The notes under the pieces were generated by a model. It worked only from the letters and a program-made list of their open reading frames with translations. It ran no database searches and was not told where the DNA came from. DNA of 37,124 nt, taken from the NCBI RefSeq assembly GCF_003334385.1, contig NZ_QOWN01000044.1; one strand, written 5' to 3'. The stretch is from Escherichia coli. GTDB taxonomy: Bacteria; Pseudomonadota; Gammaproteobacteria; Enterobacterales; Enterobacteriaceae. Every line of letters starts with the position of its first letter. Position 1 is the first letter of the stretch. A program made the position numbers and the translations under genes. Below are positions 8,299 to 37,124 of the stretch, one piece after another.

Positions 8299-8628
8299 TT
8301 AACCGCCTGCGAGTTTTACCTTCATCCCTTTCGCTTCAAGTAGTGATTTTAATAAATCACGCTTATCGCCCTGGATTTCAATAACTCCATCTTTAACTGC
8401 TCCGCCGCAGCCGCATTTTTTCTTCAGTTCCGCTGCAAGTTTTGTCAGTTCGGCATCATCGAGATCGACACCGGTAATCAGGCAAACGCCCTTACCTTTA
8501 CGTCCACTGGTCTGACGCTGAATACGCACCACACCGTCGCCTTTAGGGCGTACAGGGGCCGCTTTGGGCTCATCAATACGTCCGGTTTCCGTTGAGTAGA
8601 CCAGACGGCTGTTGGAATCACTCATCAT
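8299..8628 (-). CDS. yciH: SUI1/eIF1-family translation factor YciH
   Basis: 109 aa from the first of two tandem ATGs ([17 protein letters not shown]...). Overlaps the pyrF stop (ATGATGA); the second ATG would give 108 aa. Confidence 0.9.
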
Positions 8629-9362
8629 GCACTCCGCTGTAAAGAGGCGTTGATCGCTTTCAGCGTCTGCGCTGGATCTACCGATTGCGTTACCGGGCGA
8701 CCAATCACCATATAATCAACACCAGCCGACAACGCCTGTTCTGGCGTCATAATGCGGCGCTGGTCACCAGCTTCACTCCCCTGCGGACGAATGCCCGGCG
8801 TAACCAGTTTGAACTCCTGACCGAATACCTGTTTAAAGCGCACAGCTTCCTGAGCAGAACACACCACACCATCAAGGCCACATTTTTGCGTCAGTGCCGC
8901 CAGACGTTCTGCATAATCTGCAGGTGACAGTGTCATGCCAAGATCGACCAGGTCGCTGGCTTCCATGCTGGTCAACACTGTCACAGCAATCAAAAGCGGT
9001 GCATCTTTGCCAAACGGAACCAGTGCCTCACGCGCTGCGGTCATCATACGCGCCCCACCAGAGGCATGAACATTCACCATCCACACGCCTAAGTCAGCTG
9101 CAGCAGCGACAGCGTGCGCTGCAGTGTTGGGGATATCGTGGAATTTCAGGTCAAGAAAGATATCAAAACCACGCTGTTGAAGTTCGCGCACAAACTGTGG
9201 CCCAAACAATGTAAACATCTCTTTGCCGACCTTCAGACGACAATCGCGTGGGTCGATCTTGTCGACAAAGGCCAGCGCGTCATCACGATTATGATAATCA
9301 AGGGCAACAACCACAGGAGAATTCGTAACAGCGCGGGAAGAAGATGAAGCAGTTAACGTCAT
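8625..9362 (-). CDS. pyrF: Orotidine-5'-phosphate decarboxylase
   Basis: ORF track gives 8625..9422. I place the start at the ATG at 9362 ([22 protein letters not shown]...), giving 245 aa. Conserved DLKFHDIP active-site region present. Confidence 0.93.
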
Positions 9363-9555
9363 GACCAGACCTTCTTGATGATGGGCACCGGAAGTGGCGC
9401 GAAACAGGTAAACGGCGAGCATTCTACCCGTGGAAATAAAAAATTAACAGTTGCGATTTCTCCCCTGGCAGGCTTTTTCTGCGCCGTCGTTGCCGGAGCA
9501 CAATGGAACATTAATAATTAGTATGTTGTAACTAAAGTCGGATTTTTTTTAAAAA

Positions 9556-10725
9556 TTACAGGCCATCAAGACCGCGAATCGGTTTAATGGTTGACCAGGC
9601 CCGACAAGACGGACAATGCCAGTAGAGGGTGTATGCGGTAAAACCACATTTCTGGCAACGATAACGAGGCTTACTACGTACCTTCTCGCCAACCATGTCA
9701 CGCAGCACCATCAGGCTCTCTTTTGCACGCCCTTCTTCCGCTTCATTTAAGTGGTAATCCATTAACTTATGGAACACACGCATGGTCGGATGACGCTGAA
9801 GCTGGCGCGTAATATAGACCTGTGCGGCCTCACTACCGTCGCGCGCTTCGATGATATCAGCAAGCATCAATTCAGCATCGGCACCGGTGTTCTCTTCCAC
9901 CGCACGCTGCAGGAATTCTGCCCATTCGGCAGTTTTACCCAACTGCTGATAGCAGGTTTGCAACATTTCCAGCGTTTCGCTGACCAGTTCTCTGTCCTGG
10001 GATATCACGCGTTGCAGACTTTCGACGGCTTTGGCGTATTCTCCTTTCGCCATAAACACGCGTCCCATCATTATGGATACGCGGGCGCTGTTTTTATCTG
10101 CCGCCGCCCCTTTTTTTAGCAAGGTCATGGCACGATCGAGATCGTCGCTGGCCATATGCTGCAGGGCTAACTCACAGTAGAAATGGGCAATTTCGACGCG
10201 CTGTTTATCTTTACCCAGCTTCACCAGGCGTTCGGCAACATCAATTGCTTTCTGCCACTCACTGGTAGCCTGGTAGATTTGTAGCAACTGTTGCAGCGCG
10301 CCAATGCGGAAGTCAGTTTCATCGGTCAGCTGATTGAACATGTCTTCCGCGCGGTCATATAACCCGGCGGCCATGTAATCACGCCCCAGTTGTTGAATCG
10401 CCAACAGACGCTGTTCATAGGTCAGCGAGGCGCTTTCCATTAGGGTCTGATGGATGCGAATAGCGCGATCAACTTCGCCACGCGAACGGAACAGGTTTCC
10501 GAGCGTAAGGTGGGCTTCAACGGTGCCTGTATCCTCTTTAAGCATATCGAGAAACAGGTCTACCGCTTTATCCTGTTGATTACTAAGCAGGAAGTTAACC
10601 CCCGCTACGTAATCACGCGACAAGCGGTTGGCTTCATCTTGCTTGTTTTGTTGCGCACTTCTGCGGCCCATATACCAGCCATAGGCAGCGGCTACAGGCA
10701 AAAGCAGAAACAACAACTCCAGCAT
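9556..10725 (-). CDS. lapB: Lipopolysaccharide assembly protein B (TPR repeats plus C-terminal rubredoxin-like domain), LapB/YciM
   Basis: 389 aa; N-terminal transmembrane helix, TPR repeats, and C-terminal CxxC...CxxC zinc-binding motif (CQKCGF...CPSC). Confidence 0.93.
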   Translation of the reverse strand: MLELLFLLLPVAAAYGWYMGRRSAQQNKQDEANRLSRDYVAGVNFLLSNQQDKAVDLFLDMLKEDTGTVEAHLTLGNLFRSRGEVDRAIRIHQTLMESASLTYEQRLLAIQQLGRDYMAAGLYDRAEDMFNQLTDETDFRIGALQQLLQIYQATSEWQKAIDVAERLVKLGKDKQRVEIAHFYCELALQHMASDDLDRAMTLLKKGAAADKNSARVSIMMGRVFMAKGEYAKAVESLQRVISQDRELVSETLEMLQTCYQQLGKTAEWAEFLQRAVEENTGADAELMLADIIEARDGSEAAQVYITRQLQRHPTMRVFHKLMDYHLNEAEEGRAKESLMVLRDMVGEKVRSKPRYRCQKCGFTAYTLYWHCPSCRAWSTIKPIRGLDGL

Positions 10726-10731
10726 AGAAAG

Positions 10732-11040
10732 TTATTCCTTCGCCGCTGACGAGTGCGGCACTACAGCCACGTCAGTCGCGGGTGAAAGCTGGTTTTCCAG
10801 TCGCTTTATTTTACGTTCAGCGCGCGCCAGGGAAACACGAACTCGCAGCCAGAACAGGCCACAAATCAACCAACCGATAGCAAACCCCGCAGCAAACAAT
10901 ACCGCCAGCAATGTGGAAATACGGTACTCCCCTTGCGCTAACAGATAATTAAACGTCACCTGTTGATCGTTCTGCGCACCCAACGTGACCGAAATCACGA
11001 AGATCGCTAACACCAGTAAGAAAATGAGTAAATATTTCAC
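10732..11040 (-). CDS. lapA: Lipopolysaccharide assembly protein A, LapA/YciS
   Basis: 102 aa membrane protein encoded immediately upstream of lapB on the same strand (6-nt gap), consistent with an operon. Confidence 0.9.
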   Translation of the reverse strand: MKYLLIFLLVLAIFVISVTLGAQNDQQVTFNYLLAQGEYRISTLLAVLFAAGFAIGWLICGLFWLRVRVSLARAERKIKRLENQLSPATDVAVVPHSSAAKE

Positions 11041-11188
11041 ATTACTTCCCGTTATGTGGTTAGAGCGAATAAATTATGGTCAACTTACCGCAATAGCCCT
11101 TTAAAGTACCATTTTCGCGCCGTCTGCGAAATGGCATCCACACGCATTGTTGATGATTTAAGGGCTAAATTCGGAAAATCAACCAGCG

Positions 11189-11953
11189 TTAACTTTCTTG
11201 TTCTCGTTGCGCTATTTCGCGATTTTCTTCCGCAGGTGGTGTTAATGGCCCACAAATTCGTTGCGCAAGCCACGTTGCCACCGCCACCAGCGCCCACGAA
11301 ATCAACGTAGCTACTACCAGATCGCGTGGCCAATGCATCCCGAGCAGCAGGCGGCTTCCCATGACTCCCGTTGCCCAGACCAGCAAGATAGCAATGGTTA
11401 ACGTTCGCCGACGCGGCCACAGCAAACCAACGGCCAGCAGTGCCCAACTGGCAGCAAACATCGTGTGACCGGAAGGAAAGGCAAACCCCGTCTCTTTCTG
11501 CCAGTGTGAACGCAAATATTGTGGGATATTTTTCTCTTCAGCCAACTGTTCTTTCACTAGATTTCCGCGTTCTGCTCGCTTTAAAGTGTAGAACTCATCA
11601 ACCGGAATATGATGTGTTTTTTCCAGCCAGATAACAAAAGGTCGTGGTTCCTGGACTTTGTCTTTGATCCAGGATTTAACGCCTTGTCCCACAAGGATTG
11701 CGGCCGCCAGAATGGCAAATAATACAAAGGCAGCCTTAATGCGAAAACGCAGACACCAGAGAAACCAGCCGAATAAAATCAAATGTGTAATGACGCCCCA
11801 GGGCTGGGTGACAGTTTCAGTAACCCAAAAAGCCGCTTTTAGTAGCCAACTTTGTTCTCCAGGTTGCCAACGCCAGCCAGAAATCCATACGGCTACTGGC
11901 ATGACAAGCAATAGTGCAGCTCCCACTGCGATACGTCTGGCAATCGAACGCAT
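11189..11953 (-). CDS. pgpB: Phosphatidylglycerophosphatase B (PAP2 family)
   Basis: 254 aa polytopic membrane protein with PAP2 motifs (KxxxxxxRP, PSGH, SRxxxxxHxxxD). Confidence 0.93.
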   Translation of the reverse strand: MRSIARRIAVGAALLLVMPVAVWISGWRWQPGEQSWLLKAAFWVTETVTQPWGVITHLILFGWFLWCLRFRIKAAFVLFAILAAAILVGQGVKSWIKDKVQEPRPFVIWLEKTHHIPVDEFYTLKRAERGNLVKEQLAEEKNIPQYLRSHWQKETGFAFPSGHTMFAASWALLAVGLLWPRRRTLTIAILLVWATGVMGSRLLLGMHWPRDLVVATLISWALVAVATWLAQRICGPLTPPAEENREIAQREQES

Positions 11954-12122
11954 GGCCTCTCCTTTTTGATAAGTCCCACAATCATAACTGAAAACGCCAG
12001 TTCCAGGAAAAATTGACAGATTTGTGCCATTCCGTGAACGATCGACGCGTCGTGATTAGGTGAACCCCTTCTCGTTATGGCAAAATAAGCCAATACAGAA
12101 CCAGCATTATCTGGAGAATTTC

Positions 12123-12713
12123 ATGCAGCTTAAACGTGTGGCAGAAGCCAAACTGCCAACCCCATGGGGCGATTTCCTGATGGTGGGATTTGAAGAACTG
12201 GCAACCGGACACGATCATGTCGCGCTAGTCTATGGCGATATTTCCGGGCATACCCCGGTACTTGCGCGCGTCCATTCCGAATGTCTGACCGGTGACGCCC
12301 TGTTCAGCTTGCGCTGCGATTGTGGCTTCCAGCTCGAAGCGGCATTGACGCAAATTGCCGAGGAAGGCCGTGGTATTTTGCTGTATCACCGTCAGGAAGG
12401 TCGTAACATTGGTCTGCTGAATAAAATCCGCGCTTACGCACTGCAGGATCAAGGTTACGATACCGTAGAGGCTAACCACCAGTTAGGCTTCGCCGCTGAT
12501 GAGCGCGACTTCACTCTTTGCGCTGATATGTTCAAACTCCTTGGCGTCAATGAAGTCCGCTTGTTAACCAATAACCCGAAAAAAGTCGAAATTCTGACCG
12601 AAGCAGGGATTAATATTGTTGAACGCGTACCATTGATTGTAGGTCGTAACCCCAATAACGAACATTATCTCGATACCAAAGCCGAGAAAATGGGCCATTT
12701 GCTGAACAAATAA
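12123..12713 (+). CDS. ribA: GTP cyclohydrolase II
   Basis: ORF track gives 12060..12713. I place the start at ATG 12123 ([13 protein letters not shown]...), giving 196 aa. Zinc-binding CxxC...C cluster (HSECLTGD...LRCDCG) present. Confidence 0.93.
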
Positions 12714-12734
12714 CCCTCTTGCATTGTGTAATTC

Positions 12735-12770
12735 ATTTGCTTGCCGGAAGCAAAATAACCGGCAAGCAAA
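12735..12770. terminator. Bidirectional terminator hairpin between convergent ribA and acnA
   Basis: 12-bp inverted repeat TTTGCTTGCCGG-loop-CCGGCAAGCAAA between the two stop codons. Flanking T-runs are weak. Confidence 0.5.
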
Positions 12771-12776
12771 TAGTTG

Positions 12777-15452
12777 TTACTTCAACATATTACGAATGAC
12801 ATAATGCAAAATGCCGTCGTTCTGGTAGTAGGTCAACTCCGTCGCGGTGTCGATACGACAACGGCAGGGTACGACTTCCTGGCTACCATCCGCGCGCGTA
12901 AGCGTCACCGGAACCGTCGCGCCGGGTTGTAGGTTTTGCAGATCGCCAATATCAATCTTCTCTTCCCCGGTTAGCCCTAACGTTTTACGCGTTACGCCTT
13001 GCGGAAATTCCAGCGGCAGGATGCCCATGCCAATTAAATTCGAACGGTGAATTCGTTCAAACGATTCGGCAATCACCACACGAATACCAAGCAGACGCGG
13101 ACCTTTTGCCGCCCAGTCACGACTGGAGCCTGATCCATACTCTTTCCCGGCAATCACCGCCAGCGGCGTTTGCTCCTGCTTATAGCGCATCGCAGCATCA
13201 TAAATAGAGACTACGTCGCTGTCAGGTAAATGCCGCGTCATCCCCCCTTCAACGCCAGGCACCATTTCATTACGGATGCGAATATTGGCGAAGGTGCCGC
13301 GCATCATCACTTCATGGTTACCACGCCGCGAACCGTAGGAGTTAAAGTCTTTTCGCTCAACACCCCGACCTTGTAGATATCGACCCGCTGGGCTGTCGGG
13401 CTTAATACTGCCCGCCGGAGAGATATGGTCAGTGGTGACTGAATCCCCCAGCATTGCGAGGATCCGCGCACCGTGAATATCTTCCACTGGTGCTGGTGTT
13501 GCCTGCATTTCATCAAAGAAAGGCGATAAGCGAATATAGGTTGAGTCCTCCTGCCAACCGTAGGTATCGGATCGTGTGACGTTAATTCCCTTCCACTCTG
13601 CTGTGCCTTCAAAAACTTCTGCGTACTCTTTGCGGAACATTTCTGTGGAGACTTGTTCTACCGCACGGGCAATTTCTTGTGCCGATGGCCAGATATCTTT
13701 CAGATAAACCGGATCGCCTTTGCGATCATGGCCGATAGGCTCAGAAGCCAGGTTGATATTCATATTTCCCGCCAGCGCATAGGCAACCACCAGCGGCGGC
13801 GAGGCCAGCCAGTTAGTTTTAACCAGCGGATGGATACGGCCTTCAAAGTTACGGTTGCCGGACAGCACCGCACCGACGGTTAAATCGCCTTTTTTGATTG
13901 CCGTTTCGATAGGATCGGGCAGCGGCCCAGAGTTACCAATACAGGTGGTACAACCGTATCCCACAAGGTTAAACCCCAGTTCGTCGAGATACGGTGTCAG
14001 TTTCGCTTTTGCCAGATAATCAGAAACGACTTTCGAACCCGGTGCCAGCGACGCTTTGACCCATGGTTGCCGCTTGAGGCCCAGAGTTACGGCTTTTTTC
14101 GCCAGCAAGCCTGCGGCCATCAGCACACTTGGGTTAGAGGTGTTGGTGCACGAGGTTATCGCAGCAATGACCACAGCGCCATCAGGTAACTGATACTGAT
14201 GTCCGTTCATAACATAATCGACCGGCTGGCGATCTTTATGCGTGGCATTCACTTCCAGTTCGTTACTGGCGGCAAATGCTTTTGGTACATCGGGCAGTGC
14301 AACGCGATCCTGTGGGCGTTTAGGCCCTGCCAGGCTCGCTTCAACGTCATTCATATCCAGTTCTAACGTACTGGTAAAAATTGGTTCATCGCCCGGGTTA
14401 CGCCACATGCCCTGCGCTTTGGCATATTTTTCGACCAACTCGACCTGATCTTCGCTGCGCCCGCTTAAACGCATGTAATCGAGGGTTACAGCATCGATTG
14501 GGAAGAAGCCACAGGTGGCACCATATTCTGGCGACATATTGGCAATGGTGGCGCGATCCGCCAACGGTAGTGAATCCAGACCATCACCATAAAATTCGAC
14601 GAATTTCCCCACCACGCCATGTTTGCGCAGCATTTGGGTAACAGTGAGAACCAGGTCTGTGGCGGTAATACCTTCACGTAATTTTCCGGTAAGTTTGAAG
14701 CCCACTACATCCGGGATAAGCATGGAAACCGGCTGGCCTAACATTGCGGCTTCTGCTTCGATCCCACCAACGCCCCACCCCAGCACGCCAAGGCCGTTGA
14801 TCATGGTGGTGTGCGAGTCAGTACCAACGAGTGTATCCGGATAAGCAATCCATTCACCGTCCTGCAATTCACTCCACACTGCTTTGCCGAGATATTCGAG
14901 GTTAACCTGATGGCAAATGCCTGTGCCTGGCGGCACGACGCTAAACCGACTGAACGCTTGCTTTCCCCATTTCAGGAACACATAACGTTCGTGGTTGCGC
15001 TCCATTTCCAGGCGTACGTTTTCTTCAAATGCCTCATCATCACCAAAACGATCGACGGTCACCGAGTGGTCAATGACCAGGTCGACCGGTGAGAGCGGGT
15101 TAACCTTTGCAGTATCGCCGCCGAGGCGTTTAACCGCTTCGCGCATTGCCGCCAGATCAACAACGGCAGGTACGCCGGTAAAGTCCTGCATCAGCACCCT
15201 TGCCGGGCGGTAGGCAATTTCACGGTCAGCATGGGCATTTTTCAGCCATCCTGCCAGCGCGTGGATATCCTCTTCGGTAACCGAGTTACCATCCTGCCAG
15301 CGCAGCAGGTTTTCGAGCAAAACTTTGAGTGACTTGGGTAGACGGGTGATATCGCCCAGTGATTTAGCAGCAAGCGGCAGGCTGTAGTAGTGGTAAGTTT
15401 TATCTTTGGCCTGCAACGTGTCCTTACTGGCTTCTCGTAGGGTTGACGACAT
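12777..15452 (-). CDS. acnA: Aconitate hydratase A
   Basis: 891 aa; aconitase family with the conserved Fe-S cluster cysteine ligands. Length and sequence match AcnA as I remember it. Confidence 0.96.
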
Positions 15453-15615
15453 AGCTCCTCCTTAATGACAGGGTTGCGAAGCCCTGATTCTCTTCAGGGT
15501 GAATATTAAAGATAACACAAACATCGCGTAACGATTTGATAACAACCCAAATTGATAAAAGAGGAGAAACCTTGTGGCAAAGCAAATGACAACCCCGCCG
15601 CAGCGGGGTCAAGGA

Positions 15616-15696
15616 TCAGTGAGTAATGATCCAGAGGAGTTCGGCCCAGAAGAGCATCGACAGAGAAAACGCGCCCATCCAGGACCAATATTTCAT
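15616..15696 (-). CDS. Candidate small hydrophobic protein upstream of acnA (26 aa, MKYWSWMGAFSLSMLFWAELLWIITH)
   Basis: ATG-initiated 26-codon ORF on the acnA strand in the acnA leader region. Predicted single transmembrane helix. Below the 60-aa track cutoff; may be a real small protein or a chance ORF. Confidence 0.3.
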   Translation of the reverse strand: MKYWSWMGAFSLSMLFWAELLWIITH

Positions 15697-15824
15697 ATTT
15701 GTGTTGATCATAGGCTACACCCTTAACGGTTATTATTTTGTGTTGAGATAACTCAAGCTGTTATTGCTGCGGTGTATTAAAAGCCCTTTAATTCATTAAA
15801 AATGGGTAATAAGAATGATGATAA

Positions 15825-15992
15825 TTATTGTTTCGGCTGATCATCTTCAGCAAACAGTTCTATAAAGGCTTGCTGCTGCGATGTTAGTTGCCAGTCGTCT
15901 GGAATAACGACGGAACATTCCCGTTTCGTTTCTGTTTCATTGTCACTATGCTGGCATAATGGTGACGACTCCAGTTGCTCCTGACCGACCAT
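15825..15992 (-). CDS. yciX: Small protein YciX (55 aa)
   Basis: ATG at 15992 gives MVGQEQLESSPLCQHSDNETETKRECSVVIPDDWQ..., 55 aa. The start overlaps the stop of the upstream small ORF (TAACTATG arrangement). The ORF-track start at 16013 is a TTG 7 codons upstream. Confidence 0.6.
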   Translation of the reverse strand: MVGQEQLESSPLCQHSDNETETKRECSVVIPDDWQLTSQQQAFIELFAEDDQPKQ

Positions 15993-15994
15993 AG

Positions 15995-16135
15995 TTATCC
16001 CCACACTTTCCAAATCAGCAGTGCGACAACCACCCAGAAAAGTGCAGAACCAAGAAAAACCGCCAGCCAGGCTTTACGTTTTAATTCAGGATCGCGGCGG
16101 GGTTCCTGATTTCCAGAAGGCATTGCTAACCTCAT
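15995..16135 (-). CDS. ymiA: Small membrane protein YmiA (46 aa)
   Basis: ATG-initiated 46-aa ORF (MRLAMPSGNQEPRRDPELKRKAWLAVFLGSALFWVVVALLIWKVWG) with one predicted transmembrane helix. Its stop lies 2 nt upstream of the yciX ATG, suggesting translational coupling. Confidence 0.55.
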   Translation of the reverse strand: MRLAMPSGNQEPRRDPELKRKAWLAVFLGSALFWVVVALLIWKVWG

Positions 16136-16408
16136 ATAATCGCCATCACTTATCAGCAAGACGTTGAACGATTGGTGTAATTAATCATACGATGAGACAA
16201 ATCCTAAAGAAACTTTAGTCAAAAATCCAGCGAATTTACGAATCGTCTCCAGTGAATAATTCAATCTTTTGACCTGAAATAGATATTTGAAAACTGGAGT
16301 TTGCGAGGCGGGTAATTAGACACTACTTTACAGGTAATTTACCCTATAAATATGAGGGATAAAAATATTGTGCACGGTATAGAAATAAGTAACAAAAGAG
16401 AATATATT

Positions 16409-16436
16409 CCGGCACCTTCGCTACATAAAAGGTGCC
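16409..16436 (-). terminator. Putative terminator hairpin downstream of cysB
   Basis: CGGCACCTT-loop-AAGGTGCCG inverted repeat, 18 nt past the cysB stop. The T-run on the minus strand is modest. Confidence 0.4.
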
Positions 16437-16453
16437 GAAAATAACGCAAGAAA

Positions 16454-17452
<999 letters not shown>

Positions 17453-17574
17453 TCAGAACATCGTTTTTTCGTCACACCTGGCGGGTGACTAATACGATTT
17501 AATAATAAAAAAGGTGCTAACTATAACCACTATATCATTTATAGCCTTAGTGTATAGGTGTGAAGAAAAAATAA

Positions 17575-17608
17575 TATGCAATAAAAAAGGGCCGCTTTCG
17601 CGACCCTT
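17575..17608 (-). terminator. Intrinsic terminator after topA
   Basis: Minus strand reads AAGGGTCGCGAAAGCGGCCCTT followed by TTTTTTATT, 30 nt after the topA stop. Confidence 0.6.
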
Positions 17609-17637
17609 TGTTTATAAAAACCTGACAGAATTAAAGG

Positions 17638-20235: not shown

Positions 20236-20614
20236 ATTCACCTTACCTAATTTGATTCTTCCAGGAATGCGTCGCACGTTGATAAACCTTCCACTGGCAA
20301 CGAGTTACCGATATGGACTCGCTCTCTGCGGATATCAACCCCTTGTCGTGACTCTGTTCACGAAAATTCAGGTGACTGAGTTAACAGGTCTTGGCCTACA
20401 GGCGCTATAGCACGACGGAATTTTGGTCGAATGTCAAGCAAATCTATTGCCAGATTGACGAAAGCGTCACACTGTACCTGATAAAATCCGATACGCAACT
20501 TTATTAGCATGCAAAATCCAAAGTTGCCAGTAAGGCGCTCTTGCCACCAGCGTGGTATATTTGTCTGCAAGCCATGCCTGGCGTAGACTAATGTCCTTGT
20601 TTAAGGAGTAAATA

Positions 20615-20866: not shown

Positions 20867-20870
20867 AGCA

Positions 20871-22170: not shown

Positions 22171-22929
22171 ATGCATTACCAGCCAAAACAAGATTTACTC
22201 AATGATCGCATTATCCTGGTGACGGGAGCCAGCGATGGTATTGGTCGTGAAGCCGCGATGACGTATGCACGCTATGGTGCGACAGTGATTCTGTTGGGCC
22301 GTAATGAAGAAAAATTACGTCAGGTAGCCAGCCACATAAACGAAGAAACTGGGCGTCAGCCACAGTGGTTTATTCTCGATTTGCTGACCTGCACGTCCGA
22401 AAATTGCCAACAACTGGCACAGCGCATTGCCGTTAATTATCCGCGTCTGGATGGTGTTTTGCATAATGCCGGATTGCTCGGCGATGTTTGCCCAATGAGC
22501 GAACAAAATCCGCAGGTCTGGCAGGACGTCATGCAGGTCAACGTTAATGCCACCTTTATGCTCACCCAGGCACTGCTTCCTTTATTACTCAAATCGGACG
22601 CCGGTTCACTGGTCTTTACTTCATCAAGCGTTGGACGTCAGGGACGAGCCAACTGGGGTGCATATGCAGCGTCGAAATTTGCCACCGAAGGGATGATGCA
22701 GGTACTGGCCGATGAATATCAGCAGCGCCTGCGTGTCAACTGCATTAACCCAGGCGGTACGCGCACCGCAATGCGTGCCAGCGCCTTCCCGACCGAAGAT
22801 CCACAGAAACTTAAAACACCCGCTGATATCATGCCGCTCTACCTCTGGCTGATGGGCGATGACAGCCGCCGTAAAACCGGCATGACCTTTGACGCCCAAC
22901 CGGGCCGTAAACCAGGAATTTCCCAATGA
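22171..22929 (+). CDS. yciK: Short-chain dehydrogenase/reductase YciK
   Basis: 252 aa; TGASDGIG Rossmann motif and the Y...K catalytic pair (YAASK). AGGAG upstream of the ATG. Confidence 0.92.
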   Translation: MHYQPKQDLLNDRIILVTGASDGIGREAAMTYARYGATVILLGRNEEKLRQVASHINEETGRQPQWFILDLLTCTSENCQQLAQRIAVNYPRLDGVLHNAGLLGDVCPMSEQNPQVWQDVMQVNVNATFMLTQALLPLLLKSDAGSLVFTSSSVGRQGRANWGAYAASKFATEGMMQVLADEYQQRLRVNCINPGGTRTAMRASAFPTEDPQKLKTPADIMPLYLWLMGDDSRRKTGMTFDAQPGRKPGISQ

Positions 22930-23516: not shown

Positions 23517-23525
23517 TCTGTAAAA

Positions 23526-23548
23526 ATGCCGGATATGACGTCCGGCAT
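23526..23548 (-). terminator. Terminator hairpin between convergent btuR and rluB
   Basis: ATGCCGGA-loop-TCCGGCAT. On the minus strand it is followed by TTTTTA, so it is best placed as the rluB terminator. Confidence 0.5.
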
Positions 23549-23555
23549 ACTTTGA

Positions 23556-24431: not shown

Positions 24432-24641
24432 AGAGCTTCCTTTTGGTGTCGCCTTCCCAGGCGTCTGATATGCTTTTGTGCAACAGTGAGTCAGAACTTA
24501 CATCTGACTCACTGATAGTAAAGTCTGTTTGAACTCTTCAGGCCTTAAGTAAACGACTCGACGTTTATCGGCCTGGCTTTGAGGCGCAACATACTACACT
24601 ATCTTTATGGTTAAAGCTTGTTTCGATTAACATCAGCTTAA

Positions 24642-26537
24642 TTACCAGCCACCACCGCCTCCGCCACCCGCGCCGCCGCCAGCACCACCACCGGAATAAC
24701 TTCGCCCCAACAAACTGGTATTGGCCCCGCAACTTAGGTGCGTCTGTAATGAGAATAAAACGCCGTTACGGGCAATCTCTGGAGCGCGAATCGCCGAAGA
24801 AAGCGAAGGGGCAATGCGTAACGCCCATTCCCTCCCCAAATTTGCCGATATAGCCCAACCTAGCAACGCGTAATCCAGTTTCCGTGTTTCCCCTTTCCGC
24901 CGACGTCCACTGTGTGTTGCTGCCTCTTTACGCGCAAGATAGTTAACGATAGCTTCACCGTGGGCATAACGTTGCTGTCCAGTTTGGGTAAACTTTGGCA
25001 GAAAAATATACCCCATGCCAGTGAGATAACCGGTCAGGCAAACAGCGGTAAAATAACCCGCTGGCATATACCAGTAAAAGAATACATCTCCGACATTGAT
25101 GTAGAGAGAATAGAAGGCCACGCCTGAACAAATCAGTGGTAAAAACAAAGTGATGATTACACGATTAACGCAAGGCTTGTCATCATCGCGGGCAAACAAA
25201 AGCTCAAGGGAACAAAATAAAAAAGGAATAATCCAGCAGATCATAATAAACATATCGCCCACCAGACTCATTCCTGCCCAGCCTACAGGACTCAAGTTAC
25301 CGTAAAGAATGACCGCCAATATTGCCAGTCCACCCCATTGCAAAAAAGTATCAGACCGGTAAAACGAAGACTTTTTACGCGGCAGATAAAATTTCTGCAT
25401 CCGTAAAAATGCCCTGCGTAAGACTCTGTTGCGTCTCCCCGTAAGAACGACCTTATCGCCTTTACGAAATAACGCTTCCAGTAATAACTGCTCTGCGGGC
25501 AGTAATACCGCATTATTTCTGGTCGCGCCTTCATTAACACGAATCAGGATTTGCTGGTTCTTGTCAGACTGATCTTCCAGATGAATTTTTCCTTTCACAA
25601 TCAGATTTACGATATCGGCACAAAAACCTTTATCGTCGTAAACTAGCTTCGCATCGAGACGTAACATGCCGGGCGTGTAATCTGGCGGAATGACATCGGT
25701 TTCAATCACATCTACCGGCGTAAATTGCGGCCTGCGCTTCCAGAGATATAACCATCCACAAACCAGGAACAGACACGGAAACCAAATTAACAACGATGAC
25801 GTGGAGGGTAAAAGAAGATGGCTGAAAATATTCGTCGTTTGCGGAGCCGAGGCATTGCTAAGTAAAGCGTGAGGCCAGCGGTAGAGGACCGTGAAATCTT
25901 CACGATAAAACGGATCGCGGGATTCAATTCTTCCGTCCTCAAGGATGCGGCCATTACGATATGTGTCGCCCTCTTCTCCGGTAAAGAGATCGATTTCGCT
26001 AAATGGATTACCCGCAATATTAGAGAACTGGAGAGAAAAACGGGTCTTATAAATTTCAAACGGCCAGTGGTTACCGGTCACGTTCCAGATTAGCAGATCA
26101 GAATCCCCCTCACGCAGGAAAGCATTTTTAACCTGATAATGAATTTGATAATGATAGTCGCCTTGAGGCAAGAAACGTTGTTTATCGCCCACGACAATAC
26201 TCATTAACCCGATATGCCAGTCAAGATGCCAGGGTTCAGGAATACCATCACGGGTGACGCCAACAATATGATAGTTCAGCAGTGCAGCGTCCCCATCAGG
26301 CTGCATCCATAGTCGTGGTAAATCACGATAAAAGCCGTGCTTAATCTGCTGATTTCGCGCCTGAAAATGAATATTTTCTTTGATGTCGAGCACCCCATCT
26401 GGTTGCAGAGTGGCTTCAACATCAAAGAGCGAGATCCCTTCTTCATAAGAAGGGATCTCCGTGTTTTCTGCATAACTTAGAGATGATACAAACAGCCCTG
26501 CTATCAACAGCAAAATGCAGCGAAACTTCCCTGCCAT
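24642..26537 (-). CDS. yciQ: DUF2207-family membrane protein YciQ
   Basis: 631 aa; N-terminal signal/transmembrane segment, several central transmembrane helices, and a Gly-rich C-terminal tail. Confidence 0.88.
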   Translation of the reverse strand: MAGKFRCILLLIAGLFVSSLSYAENTEIPSYEEGISLFDVEATLQPDGVLDIKENIHFQARNQQIKHGFYRDLPRLWMQPDGDAALLNYHIVGVTRDGIPEPWHLDWHIGLMSIVVGDKQRFLPQGDYHYQIHYQVKNAFLREGDSDLLIWNVTGNHWPFEIYKTRFSLQFSNIAGNPFSEIDLFTGEEGDTYRNGRILEDGRIESRDPFYREDFTVLYRWPHALLSNASAPQTTNIFSHLLLPSTSSLLIWFPCLFLVCGWLYLWKRRPQFTPVDVIETDVIPPDYTPGMLRLDAKLVYDDKGFCADIVNLIVKGKIHLEDQSDKNQQILIRVNEGATRNNAVLLPAEQLLLEALFRKGDKVVLTGRRNRVLRRAFLRMQKFYLPRKKSSFYRSDTFLQWGGLAILAVILYGNLSPVGWAGMSLVGDMFIMICWIIPFLFCSLELLFARDDDKPCVNRVIITLFLPLICSGVAFYSLYINVGDVFFYWYMPAGYFTAVCLTGYLTGMGYIFLPKFTQTGQQRYAHGEAIVNYLARKEAATHSGRRRKGETRKLDYALLGWAISANLGREWALRIAPSLSSAIRAPEIARNGVLFSLQTHLSCGANTSLLGRSYSGGGAGGGAGGGGGGGW

Positions 26538-26564
26538 AGTCTTCCATCCGTGGAACGCAATTTG

Positions 26565-27185
26565 TTATAAGAAAGGCTTCACATCACCTACGCCTTCACG
26601 CACCACGACCGGCGTATCATCGGTAAGATCAATAACCGTTGTCGGTTTCTGCCCGAGATAGCCGCCGTGAATAATCAAATCTACCTGTTTTTCCAGACGA
26701 TCTTTAATTTCTTCCGGGTCCGATTCGGTAAATTCGCTGCCTGGCAGCATTAGCGAAGTGGAAAGCATCGGTTCGCCCAATGCTTCAAGTAACGCCTGAG
26801 CGATAGGGTTAGAAGGCACACGCATACCGATGGTTTTGCGTTTTTCCTGCAACAGACGGCGTGGCACTTCCTTCGTCCCCTTCAGGATGAAGGTATAGTT
26901 GCCCGGCGTGTTGTTTTTCATTAAACGAAACGCAACGTTATCAACAAATGAATAGGTCGAGAGTTCAGAAAGATCGCGACACATCAGGGTAAAGTTGTGA
27001 CCGTCCGGCAGCTGGCGAATACGACAAATACGCTCCATCGCGTTTTTATCTTCAATTTTACAGCCGAGCGCATAGCCGGAATCAGTTGGATAAACAATCA
27101 CCCCGCCTTTACGCACGATCTCCACCGCCTGGTTGATCAGACGTTGCTGTGGGTTATCAGGATGAATATAAAAAAACTGGCTCAT
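26565..27185 (-). CDS. yciO: Sua5/YrdC-family protein YciO
   Basis: ORF track gives 26565..27221. I place the start at the ATG at 27185 (MSQFFYIHPDNPQQ...), giving 206 aa. The start overlaps the trpH stop. Confidence 0.9.
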   Translation of the reverse strand: MSQFFYIHPDNPQQRLINQAVEIVRKGGVIVYPTDSGYALGCKIEDKNAMERICRIRQLPDGHNFTLMCRDLSELSTYSFVDNVAFRLMKNNTPGNYTFILKGTKEVPRRLLQEKRKTIGMRVPSNPIAQALLEALGEPMLSTSLMLPGSEFTESDPEEIKDRLEKQVDLIIHGGYLGQKPTTVIDLTDDTPVVVREGVGDVKPFL

Positions 27186-28063
27186 AATTCCCTCTCTGTG
27201 GTGTTCTGCGGCTGTTCCCATAGCTGCCAGACGCCTTCAACGCCTGCGGGCAGCCAGAGTTTACGACCCAGTTCGATCCACGGGCATGGCTGATGAAAAT
27301 CAGATCCTTGTGATGCCCATAAATGATGCTGACGCGCAAGGGCCGCCAGCTGGGTACGTTCATTGGGCGATTGCTGGCACTGCGCGACTTCCATCGCGTC
27401 ACCGTGGTGTTCGGCAAAATGCGCAACCAATCTTTTCAGCCATTTAGCACTAAGATTGTACCGCCCAGGATGAGCTAGCACCGCCTTACCGCCAGAATGA
27501 TGAATGACATCAATAGCTTGTTCTATTGTACACCACTGTGGCGGAACGTATCCGGTTTTCCCGCGCGCCAGATACTTTTTAAAGACATCCGCCATTGAAC
27601 TGGCTTTGCCGCACTCAACAAGGAAACGCGCAAAATGACCGCGCGTCACTGCGCCGCCCTGCGCCAGTCGTTGTGCGCCTTCCAGCGCCCCAGGTATTTG
27701 CGCTTTTTCAAGTCTTTCGGCAATCAGCTGCGCCCGCTGATTGCGCCGTTCTGTCTGCTGCGCGAGGAACTCACACATTAGCGGATGAGTAATATCAATA
27801 TTCAGCCCGACAATATGAATTTCATGATTTTCCCAGACCGTGGAAATTTCCACGCCGGGAATAAGATTCAACGCCAGTCCCGAACGTGAAATTTCCTCTC
27901 TTGCTGGCGCGATTGCAGCTGTGGTGTCATGGTCGGTGATCGCCAGGGTGCCGACGCGCATCTCGACTGCACGGTGCACCAATGCTTCTGGCGTCAGGCA
28001 GCCATCGGAAGCTGTGGTATGGCTGTGCAGGTCGTAAATCACTGCATAATTCGTGTCGCTCAA
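27182..28063 (-). CDS. trpH: PHP-domain 5'-3' exoribonuclease (RNase AM) TrpH/YciV
   Basis: 293 aa; PHP phosphoesterase motifs (DLHSHTTASDG...HP). Divergent from the trp operon. Confidence 0.92.
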   Translation of the reverse strand: MSDTNYAVIYDLHSHTTASDGCLTPEALVHRAVEMRVGTLAITDHDTTAAIAPAREEISRSGLALNLIPGVEISTVWENHEIHIVGLNIDITHPLMCEFLAQQTERRNQRAQLIAERLEKAQIPGALEGAQRLAQGGAVTRGHFARFLVECGKASSMADVFKKYLARGKTGYVPPQWCTIEQAIDVIHHSGGKAVLAHPGRYNLSAKWLKRLVAHFAEHHGDAMEVAQCQQSPNERTQLAALARQHHLWASQGSDFHQPCPWIELGRKLWLPAGVEGVWQLWEQPQNTTEREL

Positions 28064-28138
28064 GGCGCACTCCCGTTCTGGATAATGTTTTTTGCGCCGA
28101 CATCATAACGGTTCTGGCAAATATTCTGAAATGAGCTG

Positions 28139-28176
28139 TTGACAATTAATCATCAAACTAGTTAACTAGTACGCAA
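28139..28176 (+). promoter_or_regulatory. trp promoter with overlapping TrpR operator
   Basis: -35 TTGACA at 28139-28144, 17-bp spacer, -10 TTAACT at 28162-28167, start near A28175. Operator palindrome ACTAGTTAACTAGT spans the -10. Matches the classical trp promoter except for one base (see findings). Confidence 0.92.
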
Positions 28177-28200
28177 GTTCACGTAAAAAGGGTATCGACA

Positions 28201-28245
28201 ATGAAAGCAATTTTCGTACTGAAAGGTTGGTGGCGCACTTCCTGA
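28201..28245 (+). CDS. trpL: trp operon leader peptide
   Basis: 14-codon [17 protein letters not shown] with tandem Trp codons at 28228-28233; classical attenuation leader. Confidence 0.95.
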
Positions 28246-28287
28246 AACGGGCAGTGTATTCACCATGCGTAAAGCAATCAGATACCC

Positions 28288-28315
28288 AGCCCGCCTAATG
28301 AGCGGGCTTTTTTTT
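28288..28315 (+). terminator. trp attenuator (3:4 terminator hairpin plus U-tract)
   Basis: AGCCCGCC-taat-GAGCGGGCT followed by TTTTTTTT, upstream of trpE. Confidence 0.93.
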
Positions 28316-28336
28316 GAACAAAATTAGAGAATAACA

Positions 28337-29899
28337 ATGCAAACACAAAAACCGACTCTCGAACTGCTAACCTGCGAAGGCGCTTATCGCGACAATCCCA
28401 CCGCGCTTTTTCACCAGTTGTGTGGGGATCGTCCGGCAACGCTGCTGCTGGAATCCGCAGATATCGACAGCAAAGATGATTTAAAAAGCCTGCTGCTGGT
28501 AGACAGTGCGCTGCGCATTACAGCTTTAGGTGACACTGTCACAATCCAGGCACTTTCCGGCAACGGCGAAGCCCTGCTGGCACTACTGGATAACGCCCTG
28601 CCTGCGGGTGTGGAAAGTGAACAATCACCAAACTGCCGTGTGCTGCGCTTCCCCCCTGTCAGTCCACTGCTGGATGAAGACGCCCGCTTATGCTCCCTTT
28701 CGGTTTTTGACGCTTTCCGTTTATTGCAGAATCTGTTGAATGTACCGAAGGAAGAACGAGAAGCCATGTTCTTCGGCGGCCTGTTCTCTTATGACCTTGT
28801 GGCGGGATTTGAAGATTTACCGCAACTGTCAGCGGAAAATAACTGCCCTGATTTCTGTTTTTATCTCGCTGAAACGCTGATGGTGATTGACCATCAGAAA
28901 AAAAGCACCCGTATTCAGGCCAGCCTGTTTGCTCCGAATGAAGAAGAAAAACAACGTCTCACTGCTCGCCTGAACGAACTACGTCAGCAACTGACCGAAG
29001 CCGCGCCGCCGCTGCCAGTGGTTTCCGTGCCGCATATGCGTTGTGAATGTAATCAGAGCGATGAAGAGTTCGGTGGCGTAGTGCGTTTGTTGCAAAAAGC
29101 GATTCGCGCTGGAGAAATTTTCCAGGTGGTGCCATCTCGCCGTTTCTCTCTGCCCTGCCCGTCACCGCTGGCGGCCTATTACGTGCTGAAAAAGAGTAAT
29201 CCCAGCCCGTACATGTTTTTTATGCAGGATAATGATTTCACCCTATTTGGCGCGTCGCCGGAAAGCTCGCTCAAGTATGATGCCACCAGCCGCCAGATTG
29301 AGATCTACCCGATTGCCGGAACACGCCCACGCGGTCGTCGCGCCGATGGTTCACTGGACAGAGATCTCGACAGCCGTATTGAACTGGAAATGCGTACCGA
29401 TCATAAAGAGCTGTCTGAACATCTGATGCTGGTTGATCTCGCCCGTAATGATCTGGCACGCATTTGCACCCCCGGCAGCCGCTACGTCGCCGATCTCACC
29501 AAAGTTGACCGTTATTCCTATGTGATGCACCTCGTCTCTCGCGTAGTCGGCGAACTGCGTCACGATCTTGACGCCCTGCACGCTTATCGCGCCTGTATGA
29601 ATATGGGGACGTTAAGCGGTGCGCCGAAAGTACGCGCTATGCAGTTAATTGCCGAGGCGGAAGGTCGTCGCCGCGGCAGCTACGGCGGCGCGGTAGGTTA
29701 TTTCACCGCGCATGGCGATCTCGACACCTGCATTGTGATCCGCTCGGCGCTGGTGGAAAACGGTATCGCCACCGTGCAAGCGGGTGCTGGTGTAGTCCTT
29801 GATTCTGTTCCGCAGTCGGAAGCCGACGAAACCCGTAACAAAGCCCGCGCTGTACTGCGCGCTATTGCCACCGCGCATCATGCACAGGAGACTTTCTGA
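28337..29899 (+). CDS. trpE: Anthranilate synthase component I
   Basis: 520 aa; chorismate-binding enzyme fold. Stop overlaps the trpD start (TGATG). Confidence 0.97.
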
Positions 29900-31494
29900 T
29901 GGCTGACATTCTGCTGCTCGATAATATCGACTCTTTTACGTACAACCTGGCAGATCAGTTGCGCAGCAATGGGCATAACGTGGTGATTTACCGCAACCAT
30001 ATTCCGGCGCAAACCTTAATTGAACGCCTGGCGACCATGAGCAATCCGGTGCTGATGCTTTCTCCTGGCCCCGGTGTGCCGAGCGAAGCCGGTTGTATGC
30101 CGGAACTCCTCACCCGCTTGCGTGGCAAGCTGCCCATTATTGGCATTTGCCTCGGACATCAGGCGATTGTCGAAGCTTACGGGGGCTATGTCGGTCAGGC
30201 GGGCGAAATTCTCCACGGTAAAGCCTCCAGCATTGAACATGACGGTCAGGCGATGTTTGCCGGATTAACAAACCCGCTGCCGGTGGCGCGTTATCACTCG
30301 CTGGTTGGCAGTAACATTCCGGCCGGTTTAACCATCAACGCCCATTTTAATGGCATGGTGATGGCAGTACGTCACGATGCGGATCGCGTTTGTGGATTCC
30401 AGTTCCATCCGGAATCCATTCTCACCACCCAGGGCGCTCGCCTGCTGGAACAAACGCTGGCCTGGGCGCAGCAGAAACTAGAGCCAGCCAACACGCTGCA
30501 ACCGATTCTGGAAAAACTGTATCAGGCGCAGACGCTTAGCCAACAAGAAAGCCACCAGCTGTTTTCAGCGGTGGTGCGTGGCGAGCTGAAGCCGGAACAA
30601 CTGGCGGCGGCGCTGGTGAGCATGAAAATTCGCGGTGAGCACCCGAACGAGATCGCCGGGGCAGCAACCGCGCTACTGGAAAACGCAGCGCCGTTCCCGC
30701 GCCCGGATTATCTGTTTGCTGATATCGTCGGTACTGGCGGTGACGGCAGCAACAGTATCAATATTTCTACCGCCAGTGCGTTTGTCGCCGCGGCCTGTGG
30801 GCTGAAAGTGGCGAAACACGGCAACCGTAGCGTCTCCAGTAAATCTGGTTCGTCCGATCTGCTGGCGGCGTTCGGTATTAATCTTGATATGAACGCCGAT
30901 AAATCGCGCCAGGCGCTGGATGAGTTAGGTGTATGTTTCCTCTTTGCGCCGAAGTATCACACCGGATTCCGCCACGCGATGCCGGTTCGCCAGCAACTGA
31001 AAACCCGCACCCTGTTCAATGTGCTGGGGCCATTGATTAACCCGGCGCATCCGCCGCTGGCGTTAATTGGTGTTTATAGTCCGGAACTGGTGCTGCCGAT
31101 TGCCGAAACCTTGCGCGTGCTGGGGTATCAACGCGCGGCGGTGGTGCACAGCGGCGGGATGGATGAAGTTTCATTACACGCGCCGACAATCGTTGCCGAA
31201 CTGCATGACGGCGAAATTAAAAGCTATCAGCTCACCGCAGAAGACTTTGGCCTGACACCCTACCACCAGGAGCAACTGGCAGGCGGAACACCGGAAGAAA
31301 ACCGTGACATTTTAACACGTTTGTTACAAGGTAAAGGCGACGCCGCCCATGAAGCAGCCGTCGCTGCGAACGTCGCCATGTTAATGCGCCTGCATGGCCA
31401 TGAAGATCTGCAAGCCAATGCGCAAACCGTTCTTGAGGTACTGCGCAGTGGTTCCGCTTACGACAGAGTCACCGCACTGGCGGCACGAGGGTAA
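29899..31494 (+). CDS. trpD: Bifunctional anthranilate synthase component II (glutamine amidotransferase) / anthranilate phosphoribosyltransferase
   Basis: 531 aa; N-terminal class-I GATase (catalytic GICLGHQ, Cys-His) fused to the phosphoribosyltransferase domain. Confidence 0.97.
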
Positions 31495-32856
31495 ATGATG
31501 CAAACCGTTTTAGCGAAAATCGTCGCAGACAAGGCGATTTGGGTAGAAGCCCGCAAACAGCAGCAACCGCTGGCCAGTTTTCAGAATGAGGTTCAGCCGA
31601 GCACGCGACATTTTTATGATGCGCTACAGGGTGCGCGCACGGCGTTTATTCTGGAGTGCAAGAAAGCGTCGCCGTCAAAAGGCGTGATCCGTGATGATTT
31701 CGATCCAGCACGCATTGCCGCCATTTATAAACATTACGCTTCGGCAATTTCGGTGCTGACTGATGAGAAATATTTTCAGGGGAGCTTTAATTTCCTCCCC
31801 ATCGTCAGCCAAATCGCCCCGCAGCCGATTTTATGTAAAGACTTCATTATCGACCCTTACCAGATCTATCTGGCGCGCTATTACCAGGCCGATGCCTGCT
31901 TATTAATGCTTTCAGTACTGGATGACGACCAATATCGCCAGCTTGCCGCCGTCGCTCACAGTCTGGAGATGGGGGTGCTGACCGAAGTCAGTAATGAAGA
32001 GGAACAGGAGCGCGCCATTGCATTGGGAGCAAAGGTCGTTGGCATCAACAACCGCGATCTGCGTGATTTGTCGATTGATCTCAACCGTACCCGCGAGCTT
32101 GCGCCGAAACTGGGGCACAACGTGACGGTAATCAGCGAATCCGGCATCAATACTTACGCTCAGGTGCGCGAGTTAAGCCACTTCGCTAACGGTTTTCTGA
32201 TTGGTTCGGCGTTGATGGCCCATGACGATTTGCACGCCGCCGTGCGCCGGGTGTTGCTGGGTGAGAATAAAGTATGTGGCCTGACGCGTGGGCAAGATGC
32301 TAAAGCAGCTTATGACGCGGGCGCGATTTACGGTGGGTTGATTTTTGTTGCGACATCACCGCGTTGCGTCAACGTTGAACAGGCGCAGGAAGTGATGGCT
32401 GCGGCACCGTTGCAGTATGTTGGCGTGTTCCGCAATCACGATATTGCCGATGTGGTGGACAAAGCTAAGGTGTTATCGCTGGCGGCAGTGCAACTGCATG
32501 GTAATGAAGAACAGCTGTATATCGATACGCTGCGTGAAGCTCTGCCAGCACATGTTGCCATCTGGAAAGCATTAAGCGTCGGTGAAACCCTGCCCGCCCG
32601 CGAGTTTCAGCACGTTGATAAATATGTTTTAGACAACGGCCAGGGTGGAAGCGGGCAACGTTTTGACTGGTCACTATTAAATGGTCAATCGCTTGGCAAC
32701 GTTCTGCTGGCGGGGGGCTTAGGCGCAGATAACTGCGTGGAAGCGGCACAAACCGGCTGCGCCGGACTTGATTTTAATTCTGCTGTAGAGTCGCAACCGG
32801 GCATCAAAGACGCACGTCTTTTGGCCTCGGTTTTCCAGACGCTGCGCGCATATTAA
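31495..32856 (+). CDS. trpC: Bifunctional indole-3-glycerol-phosphate synthase / phosphoribosylanthranilate isomerase
   Basis: 453 aa from the first of two tandem ATGs directly after the trpD stop (TAAATGATG); two TIM-barrel domains. Confidence 0.96.
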
Positions 32857-32867
32857 GGAAAGGAACA

Positions 32868-34061
32868 ATGACAACATTACTTAACCCCTATTTTGGTGAG
32901 TTTGGCGGCATGTACGTGCCACAAATCCTGATGCCTGCTCTGCGCCAGCTGGAAGAAGCTTTTGTCAGTGCGCAAAAAGATCCTGAATTTCAGGCTCAGT
33001 TCAACGACCTGCTGAAAAACTATGCCGGGCGTCCAACCGCGCTGACCAAATGCCAGAACATTACAGCCGGGACGAACACCACGCTGTATCTCAAGCGTGA
33101 AGATTTGCTGCACGGCGGCGCGCATAAAACTAACCAGGTGCTGGGGCAGGCGTTGCTGGCGAAGCGGATGGGTAAAACCGAAATCATCGCCGAAACCGGT
33201 GCCGGTCAGCATGGCGTGGCGTCGGCCCTTGCCAGCGCCCTGCTCGGCCTGAAATGCCGTATTTATATGGGTGCCAAAGACGTTGAACGCCAGTCGCCTA
33301 ACGTTTTTCGTATGCGCTTAATGGGTGCGGAAGTGATCCCGGTGCATAGCGGTTCCGCGACGCTGAAAGATGCCTGTAACGAGGCGCTGCGCGACTGGTC
33401 CGGTAGTTACGAAACCGCGCACTATATGCTGGGCACCGCAGCTGGCCCGCATCCTTATCCGACCATTGTGCGTGAGTTTCAGCGGATGATTGGCGAAGAA
33501 ACCAAAGCGCAGATTCTGGAAAGAGAAGGTCGCCTGCCGGATGCCGTTATCGCCTGTGTTGGCGGCGGTTCGAATGCCATCGGCATGTTTGCTGATTTCA
33601 TCAATGAAACCAACGTCGGCCTGATTGGTGTGGAGCCAGGTGGTCACGGTATCGAAACTGGCGAGCACGGCGCACCGCTAAAACATGGTCGCGTGGGTAT
33701 CTATTTCGGTATGAAAGCGCCGATGATGCAAACCGAAGACGGGCAGATTGAAGAATCTTACTCCATCTCCGCCGGACTGGATTTCCCGTCTGTCGGCCCA
33801 CAACACGCGTATCTTAACAGCACTGGACGCGCTGATTACGTGTCTATTACCGATGATGAAGCCCTTGAAGCCTTCAAAACGCTGTGCCTGCACGAAGGGA
33901 TCATCCCGGCGCTGGAATCCTCCCACGCCCTGGCCCATGCGTTGAAAATGATGCGCGAAAACCCGGATAAAGAGCAGCTACTGGTGGTTAACCTTTCCGG
34001 TCGCGGCGATAAAGACATCTTCACCGTTCACGATATTTTGAAAGCACGAGGGGAAATCTGA
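32868..34061 (+). CDS. trpB: Tryptophan synthase beta chain
   Basis: 397 aa; PLP-binding Lys in [18 protein letters not shown] upstream of the ATG. Confidence 0.97.
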
Positions 34062-34867
34062 TGGAACGCTACGAATCTCTGTTTGCCCAGTTGAAGGAGC
34101 GCAAAGAAGGCGCATTCGTTCCTTTCGTCACGCTCGGTGATCCGGGCATTGAGCAGTCATTGAAAATTATCGATACGCTAATTGAAGCCGGTGCTGACGC
34201 GCTGGAGTTAGGTATCCCCTTCTCCGACCCACTGGCGGATGGCCCGACGATTCAAAACGCCACTCTGCGCGCCTTTGCGGCAGGTGTGACTCCGGCACAA
34301 TGTTTTGAAATGCTGGCACTGATTCGCCAGAAACACCCGACCATTCCCATTGGCCTGTTGATGTATGCCAATCTGGTGTTTAACAAAGGCATTGATGAGT
34401 TTTATGCCCAGTGCGAAAAAGTCGGCGTCGATTCGGTGCTGGTTGCCGATGTGCCAGTTGAAGAGTCCGCGCCCTTCCGCCAGGCCGCGTTGCGTCATAA
34501 TGTCGCACCTATCTTCATCTGCCCGCCAAATGCCGATGACGACCTGCTGCGCCAGATAGCCTCTTACGGTCGTGGTTACACCTATTTGCTGTCACGAGCA
34601 GGCGTGACCGGCGCAGAAAACCGCGCCGCGTTACCCCTCAATCATCTGGTTGCGAAGCTGAAAGAGTACAACGCTGCACCTCCATTGCAGGGATTTGGTA
34701 TTTCCGCCCCGGATCAGGTAAAAGCAGCGATTGATGCAGGAGCTGCGGGCGCGATTTCTGGTTCGGCCATTGTTAAAATCATCGAGCAACATATTAATGA
34801 GCCAGAGAAAATGCTGGCGGCACTGAAAGTTTTTGTACAACCGATGAAAGCGGCGACGCGCAGTTAA
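34061..34867 (+). CDS. trpA: Tryptophan synthase alpha chain
   Basis: 268 aa; start overlaps the trpB stop (TGATG); TIM-barrel alpha subunit. Confidence 0.97.
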
Positions 34868-37066: not shown

Positions 37067-37124
37067 TCACGGCAATAACATATTTTTTATGACATTATCC
37101 GTCATGTATGACATAACAACTATC

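Follow-up and report, generated by a model that had tools for sequence, protein, structure and literature searches.

We analysed a 37,124-nucleotide (nt) stretch of Escherichia coli DNA (contig NZ_QOWN01000044.1 of assembly GCF_003334385.1, hereafter the window), in which six pairs of neighbouring genes, pyrF/yciH, yciK/btuR, rnm/yciO, trpE/trpD, trpD/trpC and trpB/trpA, meet at closely joined stop and start codons. An earlier sequence-only reading had recorded these as overlapping junctions that indicate translational coupling. The window carries the chromosomal genes from fabI to ompW and runs opposite to the K-12 orientation. Bases 77-36743 were 99.97% identical to K-12 MG1655, with 12 single-nucleotide differences over 36.7 kb and none at the junctions, and 99.98% identical to strain Z1323HEC0011; for up to 40 nt around each junction, the window and K-12 did not differ. 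A 24.9-kb query was matched over at least 80% of its length by 5,404 of 5,426 complete E. coli genomes. The RefSeq annotation was carried over to window coordinates, and all coding sequences (CDSs) translated without internal stops. Gaps are given as negative numbers for shared nt, 0 for abutting genes and positive numbers for spacer nt.

Three of the junctions lie outside the trp operon. At pyrF/yciH, on the minus strand, ATGATGA occupies 8622..8628; the pyrF TGA (8627..8625) and the annotated yciH ATG (8625..8623) form TGATG, and the two genes (245 and 108 amino acids (aa) in RefSeq) have one base in common (gap -1). Another in-frame yciH ATG is found at 8628..8626, and its use would make the overlap 4 nt. 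At yciK/btuR (cobO), on the plus strand, ATGA at 22926-22929 contains the btuR ATG (22926-22928) and the yciK TGA (22927-22929), giving a gap of -4. The same gap of -4 is seen on the minus strand at rnm (trpH)/yciO, where ATGA (plus strand TCAT) at 27182..27185 holds the yciO ATG (27185..27183) and the rnm TGA (27184..27182).

The remaining three junctions lie on the plus strand within the trp operon. TGATG occurs both at trpE/trpD (29897-29901; TGA 29897-29899, ATG 29899-29901; gap -1) and at trpB/trpA (34059-34063; TGA 34059-34061, ATG 34061-34063; gap -1). At trpD/trpC (31492-31500), the TAA at 31492-31494 is followed by the annotated ATG at 31495-31497 (gap 0) and by a second ATG at 31498-31500 (gap +3).

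All six stop/start strings named by the sequence-only reading are present, and the coordinates given for five of them are exact, the rnm (trpH)/yciO string being on the minus strand. For pyrF/yciH the motif ATGATGA does exist, but the range 8623-8628 is one base short (8628..8622) and was given without its minus strand; the plus strand at 8623-8628 is CATCAT, i.e. ATGATG only. Five junctions share nt as described, but trpD/trpC abuts with a gap of 0. Comparison with reference gene boundaries bore out the remainder, as in K-12 MG1655 and in the near-identical strain all six downstream genes are annotated to begin at the codons that the reading had named. The boundaries are the same in K-12 RefSeq, and describing the junctions as expected for these operons was correct.

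The pairs pyrF/yciH, yciK/btuR, rnm/yciO, trpE/trpD and trpB/trpA fit the -4/-1 overlap class, and trpD/trpC does not. Among the 25 co-directional adjacent pairs in the window there were no overlaps beyond these five; the next tightest junctions were ymiA>yciX at +2 (15993-15994), lapA>lapB at +6 and trpC>trpB at +11. We consider it highly probable (roughly 0.88) that the six junctions are cistron boundaries in the known operons pyrF-yciH, yciK-btuR, rnm-yciO(-yciQ) and trpLEDCBA, and that the overlaps permit termination-reinitiation at five of them. At these five, the upstream gene, ending in UGA, and the downstream gene, starting in AUG, have 1 nt (UGAUG) or 4 nt (AUGA) in common, and a ribosome ending the upstream gene would already sit at the downstream start, where it could reinitiate. 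The output of the downstream gene would thereby be tied to that of the upstream gene. The trpD-trpC junction is tight and non-overlapping, and if it is coupled at all, the mode would be that of a short spacer, as seen at galT-galK.

Every downstream gene was preceded by a Shine-Dalgarno (SD) sequence, scored as the duplex with the 3' end of 16S rRNA. The strongest was that of trpA, CGAGGGGA at 34047..34054 (+), inside trpB, with -8.0 kcal/mol and 6 nt before the ATG; CGAGGGGA was nearly invariant across species. The trpD SD, CAGGAGA at 29885..29891 (+) inside trpE, scored -7.4 kcal/mol at 7 nt before the ATG, and its AGGAG was conserved. The yciO SD, CAGAGAGGG at 27190..27198 (-) inside rnm, scored -7.0 kcal/mol, and its GAGAGGG core was kept in most species examined. 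That of yciH, CGGAGT at 8631..8636 (-) inside pyrF, scored -6.1 kcal/mol and lies 5 nt before the annotated second ATG and 2 nt before the first. At the end of trpD, CGAGGG at 31486..31491 (+) scored -6.4 kcal/mol as the trpC SD, and btuR has a weak SD, CAGGAA at 22913..22918 (+) inside yciK, with -4.3 kcal/mol at 7 nt before the ATG. The downstream SDs within upstream open reading frames (ORFs) stand 4-7 nt before the start, at a functional spacing, with energies of -4.3 to -8.0 kcal/mol. The rnm gene itself is annotated with a TTG start at 28061-28063 (-), and the SD before it reads CGGGAGT.

Conservation of the junctions was followed in 80 Enterobacteriaceae loci with 10-kb flanks, obtained from a YciO scan of species-representative genomes and modelled with tblastn; for pyrF/yciH, YciH homologues were looked up in seven other genera. 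The results showed that trpE/trpD has a gap of -1 in 67 of 67 species (stop codon TGA in 50, TAA in 17) and that trpB/trpA has a gap of -1 in 64 of 65 gene models, with TGATG or TAATG in 65 of 65 (TGA 53, TAA 12). The lone trpB/trpA exception, with an apparent gap of 64, was rejected as a gene-model artefact; the TGATG is still there, and a downstream frameshift or an assembly error is the probable cause. The gap at yciK/btuR was -4 in 60 of 60 species and that at rnm/yciO was -4 in 63 of 77, with the yciO ATG at the homologous position in 77 of 77. At pyrF/yciH, six of the seven other genera had a gap of -1, five of them with TAATG and Buttiauxella with the E. coli-like ATGATG. Exchange of TGA and TAA across species left the geometry of the -1 pairs unchanged, and the non-overlapping trpC/trpB spacer varied from 9 to 18 nt. 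These comparisons suggest that the overlap geometry has been kept by selection across related genomes.

As to the start codons themselves, we regard it as fairly probable that some downstream starts are mis-annotated, with the overlap or abutment being an artefact of choosing the first ATG. The case for this is clearest at trpC, for which RefSeq uses the first of two ATGs and gives 453 aa. The trpD/trpC junction reads TAA-NNN-ATG in 48 of 67 species, with NNN being a non-start triplet (ATA, GAA, AAA, AGA and others), so that the first ATG is absent there; TAA-ATG-ATG as in E. coli was found in the other 19 of the 67. The distance from the end of the SD CGAGGG is 3 nt to the first ATG and 6 nt to the second. 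Methionine aminopeptidase leaves Met in place before Met or Gln. The chain of the E. coli enzyme in PDB entry 1PII has 452 residues and starts MQTVLAK, that is, at the second Met, and because Met is not removed before Met or Gln, this mature N-terminus is in keeping with a start at the second ATG. Most likely, then, trpC begins there, at 31498, and the annotated start is probably one codon too long. A start at 31498 makes the trpD-trpC junction +3, like galT-galK, and leaves the operon picture unchanged. The sequence-only reading had offered trpD/trpC as support for its choice of trpC start; conservation, SD spacing and 1PII instead favour the second ATG.

Upstream in-frame ATGs are also present in the E. 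coli yciH and yciO ORFs. Against a wider mis-annotation, the annotated starts of yciH, yciO, btuR, trpD and trpA were at the homologous position (offset 0) in every species examined (60-77 species; seven genera for yciH). The five TAATG genera lack the first yciH ATG, so the conserved yciH start is the second ATG of E. coli, on which the annotation already stands, and PDB entry 1D1R, which begins MSDSNS, agrees with it. The upstream yciO ATG at 27221, which would give 218 aa, was rejected as a start; it is not conserved, and the frame is closed by a stop 3-6 codons upstream of the annotated ATG in 48 of 79 species.

We also assessed how often such motifs arise by chance. Counting every frame, the window has 2938 stop trinucleotides, and 585 of them (20%) carry an ATG at -4, -1 or 0. 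Enrichment of the motif at real stops had been expected and was not seen against this 20% background, and that argument was given up in favour of ORF length, spacing and conservation. On their own the motifs cannot carry the start-codon choices, the bare motif being too frequent; the support comes from the ORFs, the SDs and conservation. Each downstream start opens an ORF of 108-531 codons that corresponds to an annotated conserved gene, and the probability of six motifs each opening at least 100 codons was 0.018. Gaps of exactly -4 or -1 in 5 of 25 pairs had P = 7e-5 under a null of uniform spacing from -10 to +100. Eight of the 25 pairs in the window fall within -8..+6, compared with 707 of 2,987 (24%) genome-wide (PMC10666635, Huber et al. 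2023; binomial P 0.22). Tight junctions are about as dense in the window as in E. coli at large.

The other stops in the window have a context of their own. None of the 32 annotated stops outside the six junctions (38 in total) has ATG, GTG or TTG at -4, -1 or 0. All four non-junction TGA stops, those of ymiC, trpL, yciG and yciF, are preceded by C, the only base that creates no overlapping start. Avoidance of spurious reinitiation sites is a possible explanation, suggested by a small sample from this window alone. The pdeR gene (+) converges on ymiD (-), a small gene, and their 3' ends share 19 nt (6508-6526).

TrpE and TrpD make up anthranilate synthase, and TrpB and TrpA make up tryptophan synthase, both of which are heteromeric enzymes. 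Coupling was first demonstrated at trpE-trpD, with its spacing of -1 (Oppenheim and Yanofsky 1980, as cited in PMC12548453), and according to PMC12548453 a block of trpE translation had an effect on trpD expression more than 10-fold that on the genes further downstream. At trpB-trpA, coupling needs both the SD and the stop-start overlap (Das and Yanofsky 1984, 1989, as cited in PMC12548453; also PMC6728339, through its reference 8). The window holds this same locus, with UGAUG overlaps, upstream SDs and products that are subunits of heteromeric enzymes, and we found no difference for these two pairs, apart from the window coming from another E. coli strain than K-12. The coupling claimed by the earlier reading therefore has experimental backing in the literature for trpE-trpD and trpB-trpA, whereas at pyrF-yciH, yciK-btuR and rnm-yciO we infer it from their geometry.

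For two of the latter pairs, the closest parallels are the native E. coli 4-nt overlaps studied by Huber et al. (2019, 2023), namely hyfHI, astDB and ydbH-ynbE as well as menDH, with which yciK-btuR and rnm-yciO share the ATGA geometry and an intragenic SD. Of five native 4-nt overlaps from E. coli, four showed coupling (PMC6728339, Huber et al. 2019). Among tight pairs (-8..+10), subunits of heteromeric complexes are 4.5-fold enriched and about 30% encode complex partners, and coupling falls steeply with spacer length (PMC10666635). The pairs yciK-btuR and rnm-yciO differ from the Huber pairs in the weak btuR SD (-4.3 kcal/mol) and in having partners that are not known to form a complex. CRISPR interference with pyrF lowered the YciH protein, which is consistent with one transcript (PMC7818426), and rnm and yciO co-localise in many species (PMC12506659). 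At trpD-trpC, use of the second ATG gives the same +3 spacing (UAA AUG AUG) as galT-galK (Schumperli et al. 1982, as cited in PMC12548453), and there too an SD lies where the upstream gene ends. We found no direct test of trpD-trpC coupling in the literature.

It is possible, though in our view unlikely, that the three non-trp pairs are compactly packed and uncoupled, with SD-driven de novo initiation and with the -1 and -4 gaps arising neutrally by drift of stops and starts. A series of results favours this view and weighs against coupling at these junctions. The motif stands at chance frequency at the real stops (the probability that at least 6 of 38 carry it is 0.80), and every downstream gene has its own SD, making independent initiation possible. 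The predicted ribosome-binding sites (RBSs) showed no sequestration, the -15..+3 regions of yciH, btuR, yciO, trpD, trpC and trpA being as accessible as shuffled sequences (z -0.37 to +1.85) in a weak test in which -99..+30 fragments were folded only locally; RBSs no less accessible than the shuffled controls leave room for independent initiation. The rnm/yciO overlap is lost in 14 of 77 species (gap +1 to +15), and Pluralibacter has a 9-nt gap and no overlap at pyrF/yciH. To our knowledge, no heteromeric complex has been described for PyrF and YciH, YciK and BtuR, or RNase AM and YciO. Literature searches for coupling at pyrF-yciH and rnm-yciO returned no direct experiment, and none was found for yciK-btuR either. 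Finally, bioB-bioF, a native E. coli 4-nt ATGA overlap in a biosynthetic operon, showed no coupling (PMC6728339, Huber et al. 2019), so that an overlap is insufficient by itself and caution is due for the three non-trp pairs.

Other observations speak against neutral packing. The yciK/btuR gap is constant at -4 in all 60 species and pyrF/yciH keeps -1 in six of seven genera despite the exchange of TGA and TAA, unlike the unconstrained trpC/trpB spacer, which varies. The coupling of four of the five native -4 pairs tested in E. coli (PMC6728339) points the same way, and termination-reinitiation at the overlaps remains our preferred reading.

An unmasking mechanism, in which upstream ribosomes open a downstream RBS locked in structure with the upstream CDS and the same ribosome does not reinitiate, has been described in E. 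coli for pairs that include atpHA and rplJL (according to the introduction of PMC6728339) but is very unlikely here, as the six -15..+3 regions were no less accessible than shuffles in the weak test above and restoring the stop-start overlap itself restored coupling at trpB-trpA (Das and Yanofsky 1989, going by its title as cited in PMC12548453). The open predicted RBSs thus favour reinitiation by the terminating ribosome over unmasking of structure.

In strain Z1323HEC0011, RefSeq gives yciO (26565-27185) the product name 'L-threonylcarbamoyladenylate synthase'. PMC12506659 makes the case that the TsaC function is not carried out by YciO in vivo, and this automatic name is probably an over-annotation. 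We also considered whether the conserved rnm/yciO overlap and the co-localisation of the two genes reflect a need for RNase AM and the uncharacterised RNA-binding protein YciO to be matched in amount, the two acting jointly, possibly as a complex, in the maturation of rRNA 5' ends; we hold this to be improbable.

A terminator scan found no terminator-like hairpin between junction partners, and because the genes overlap, an intergenic terminator has no room there. Terminator-like hairpins were found at the ends of three units, after yciH (8268..8293, -; end of the pyrF-yciH unit), after btuR (23526..23548, +; end of the yciK-btuR unit) and after trpA (34875..34895, +; end of the trp operon). 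The trp attenuator hairpin lies at 28288-28308. The scan also gave a hit on both strands at 26431-26459, in the 5' part of the yciQ CDS, where a perfect 13-bp inverted repeat reads GAGATCCCTTCTT CAT AAGAAGGGATCTC.

Upstream of the trp genes, the window has G>A at 28155 relative to K-12 and to the closest strain, which changes the spacer between the -35 and -10 elements of the trp promoter from CATCGAACTAG to CATCAAACTAG. The exact 71-mer around 28155 occurs in only about 5 of 5,409 genomes, making this a rare variant. We take 28155 to be the left half-site's outer G in the trp operator, which the spacer presumably overlaps, and the substitution might weaken TrpR repression.

Mobile DNA makes up the two ends of the window. 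At the left end, bases 1-80 are identical to the last 80 nt (right end) of IS186 as annotated in K-12 (IS186A). This IS186 end is multi-copy, with a median of 3 and a maximum of 22 copies per genome, and is found on plasmids too; here it lies upstream of fabI at a distance of about 165 bp, a place taken by a G-rich repeat in K-12 and Z1323HEC0011. At the right end, 36744-37124 is AT-rich foreign DNA that matches the end of the E. coli ECOR-9 prophage P-EibA at 99.2% identity. The ompW gene (minus strand) is broken at 36743/36744, and among 5,426 complete E. coli genomes only 60 have this junction. It appears that ompW (yciD) is the integration site of a lambdoid prophage.

Taken as a set, the six junctions are routine and already known features of E. 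coli; they are annotated, and the pairs of the trp operon are the classic example of translational coupling. Statistically, a stop/start overlap motif taken alone is no evidence for a start codon. The main use of the finding is quality control, in that the first-pass gene boundaries agree with the reference and the window is unremarkable as a part of the E. coli chromosome.

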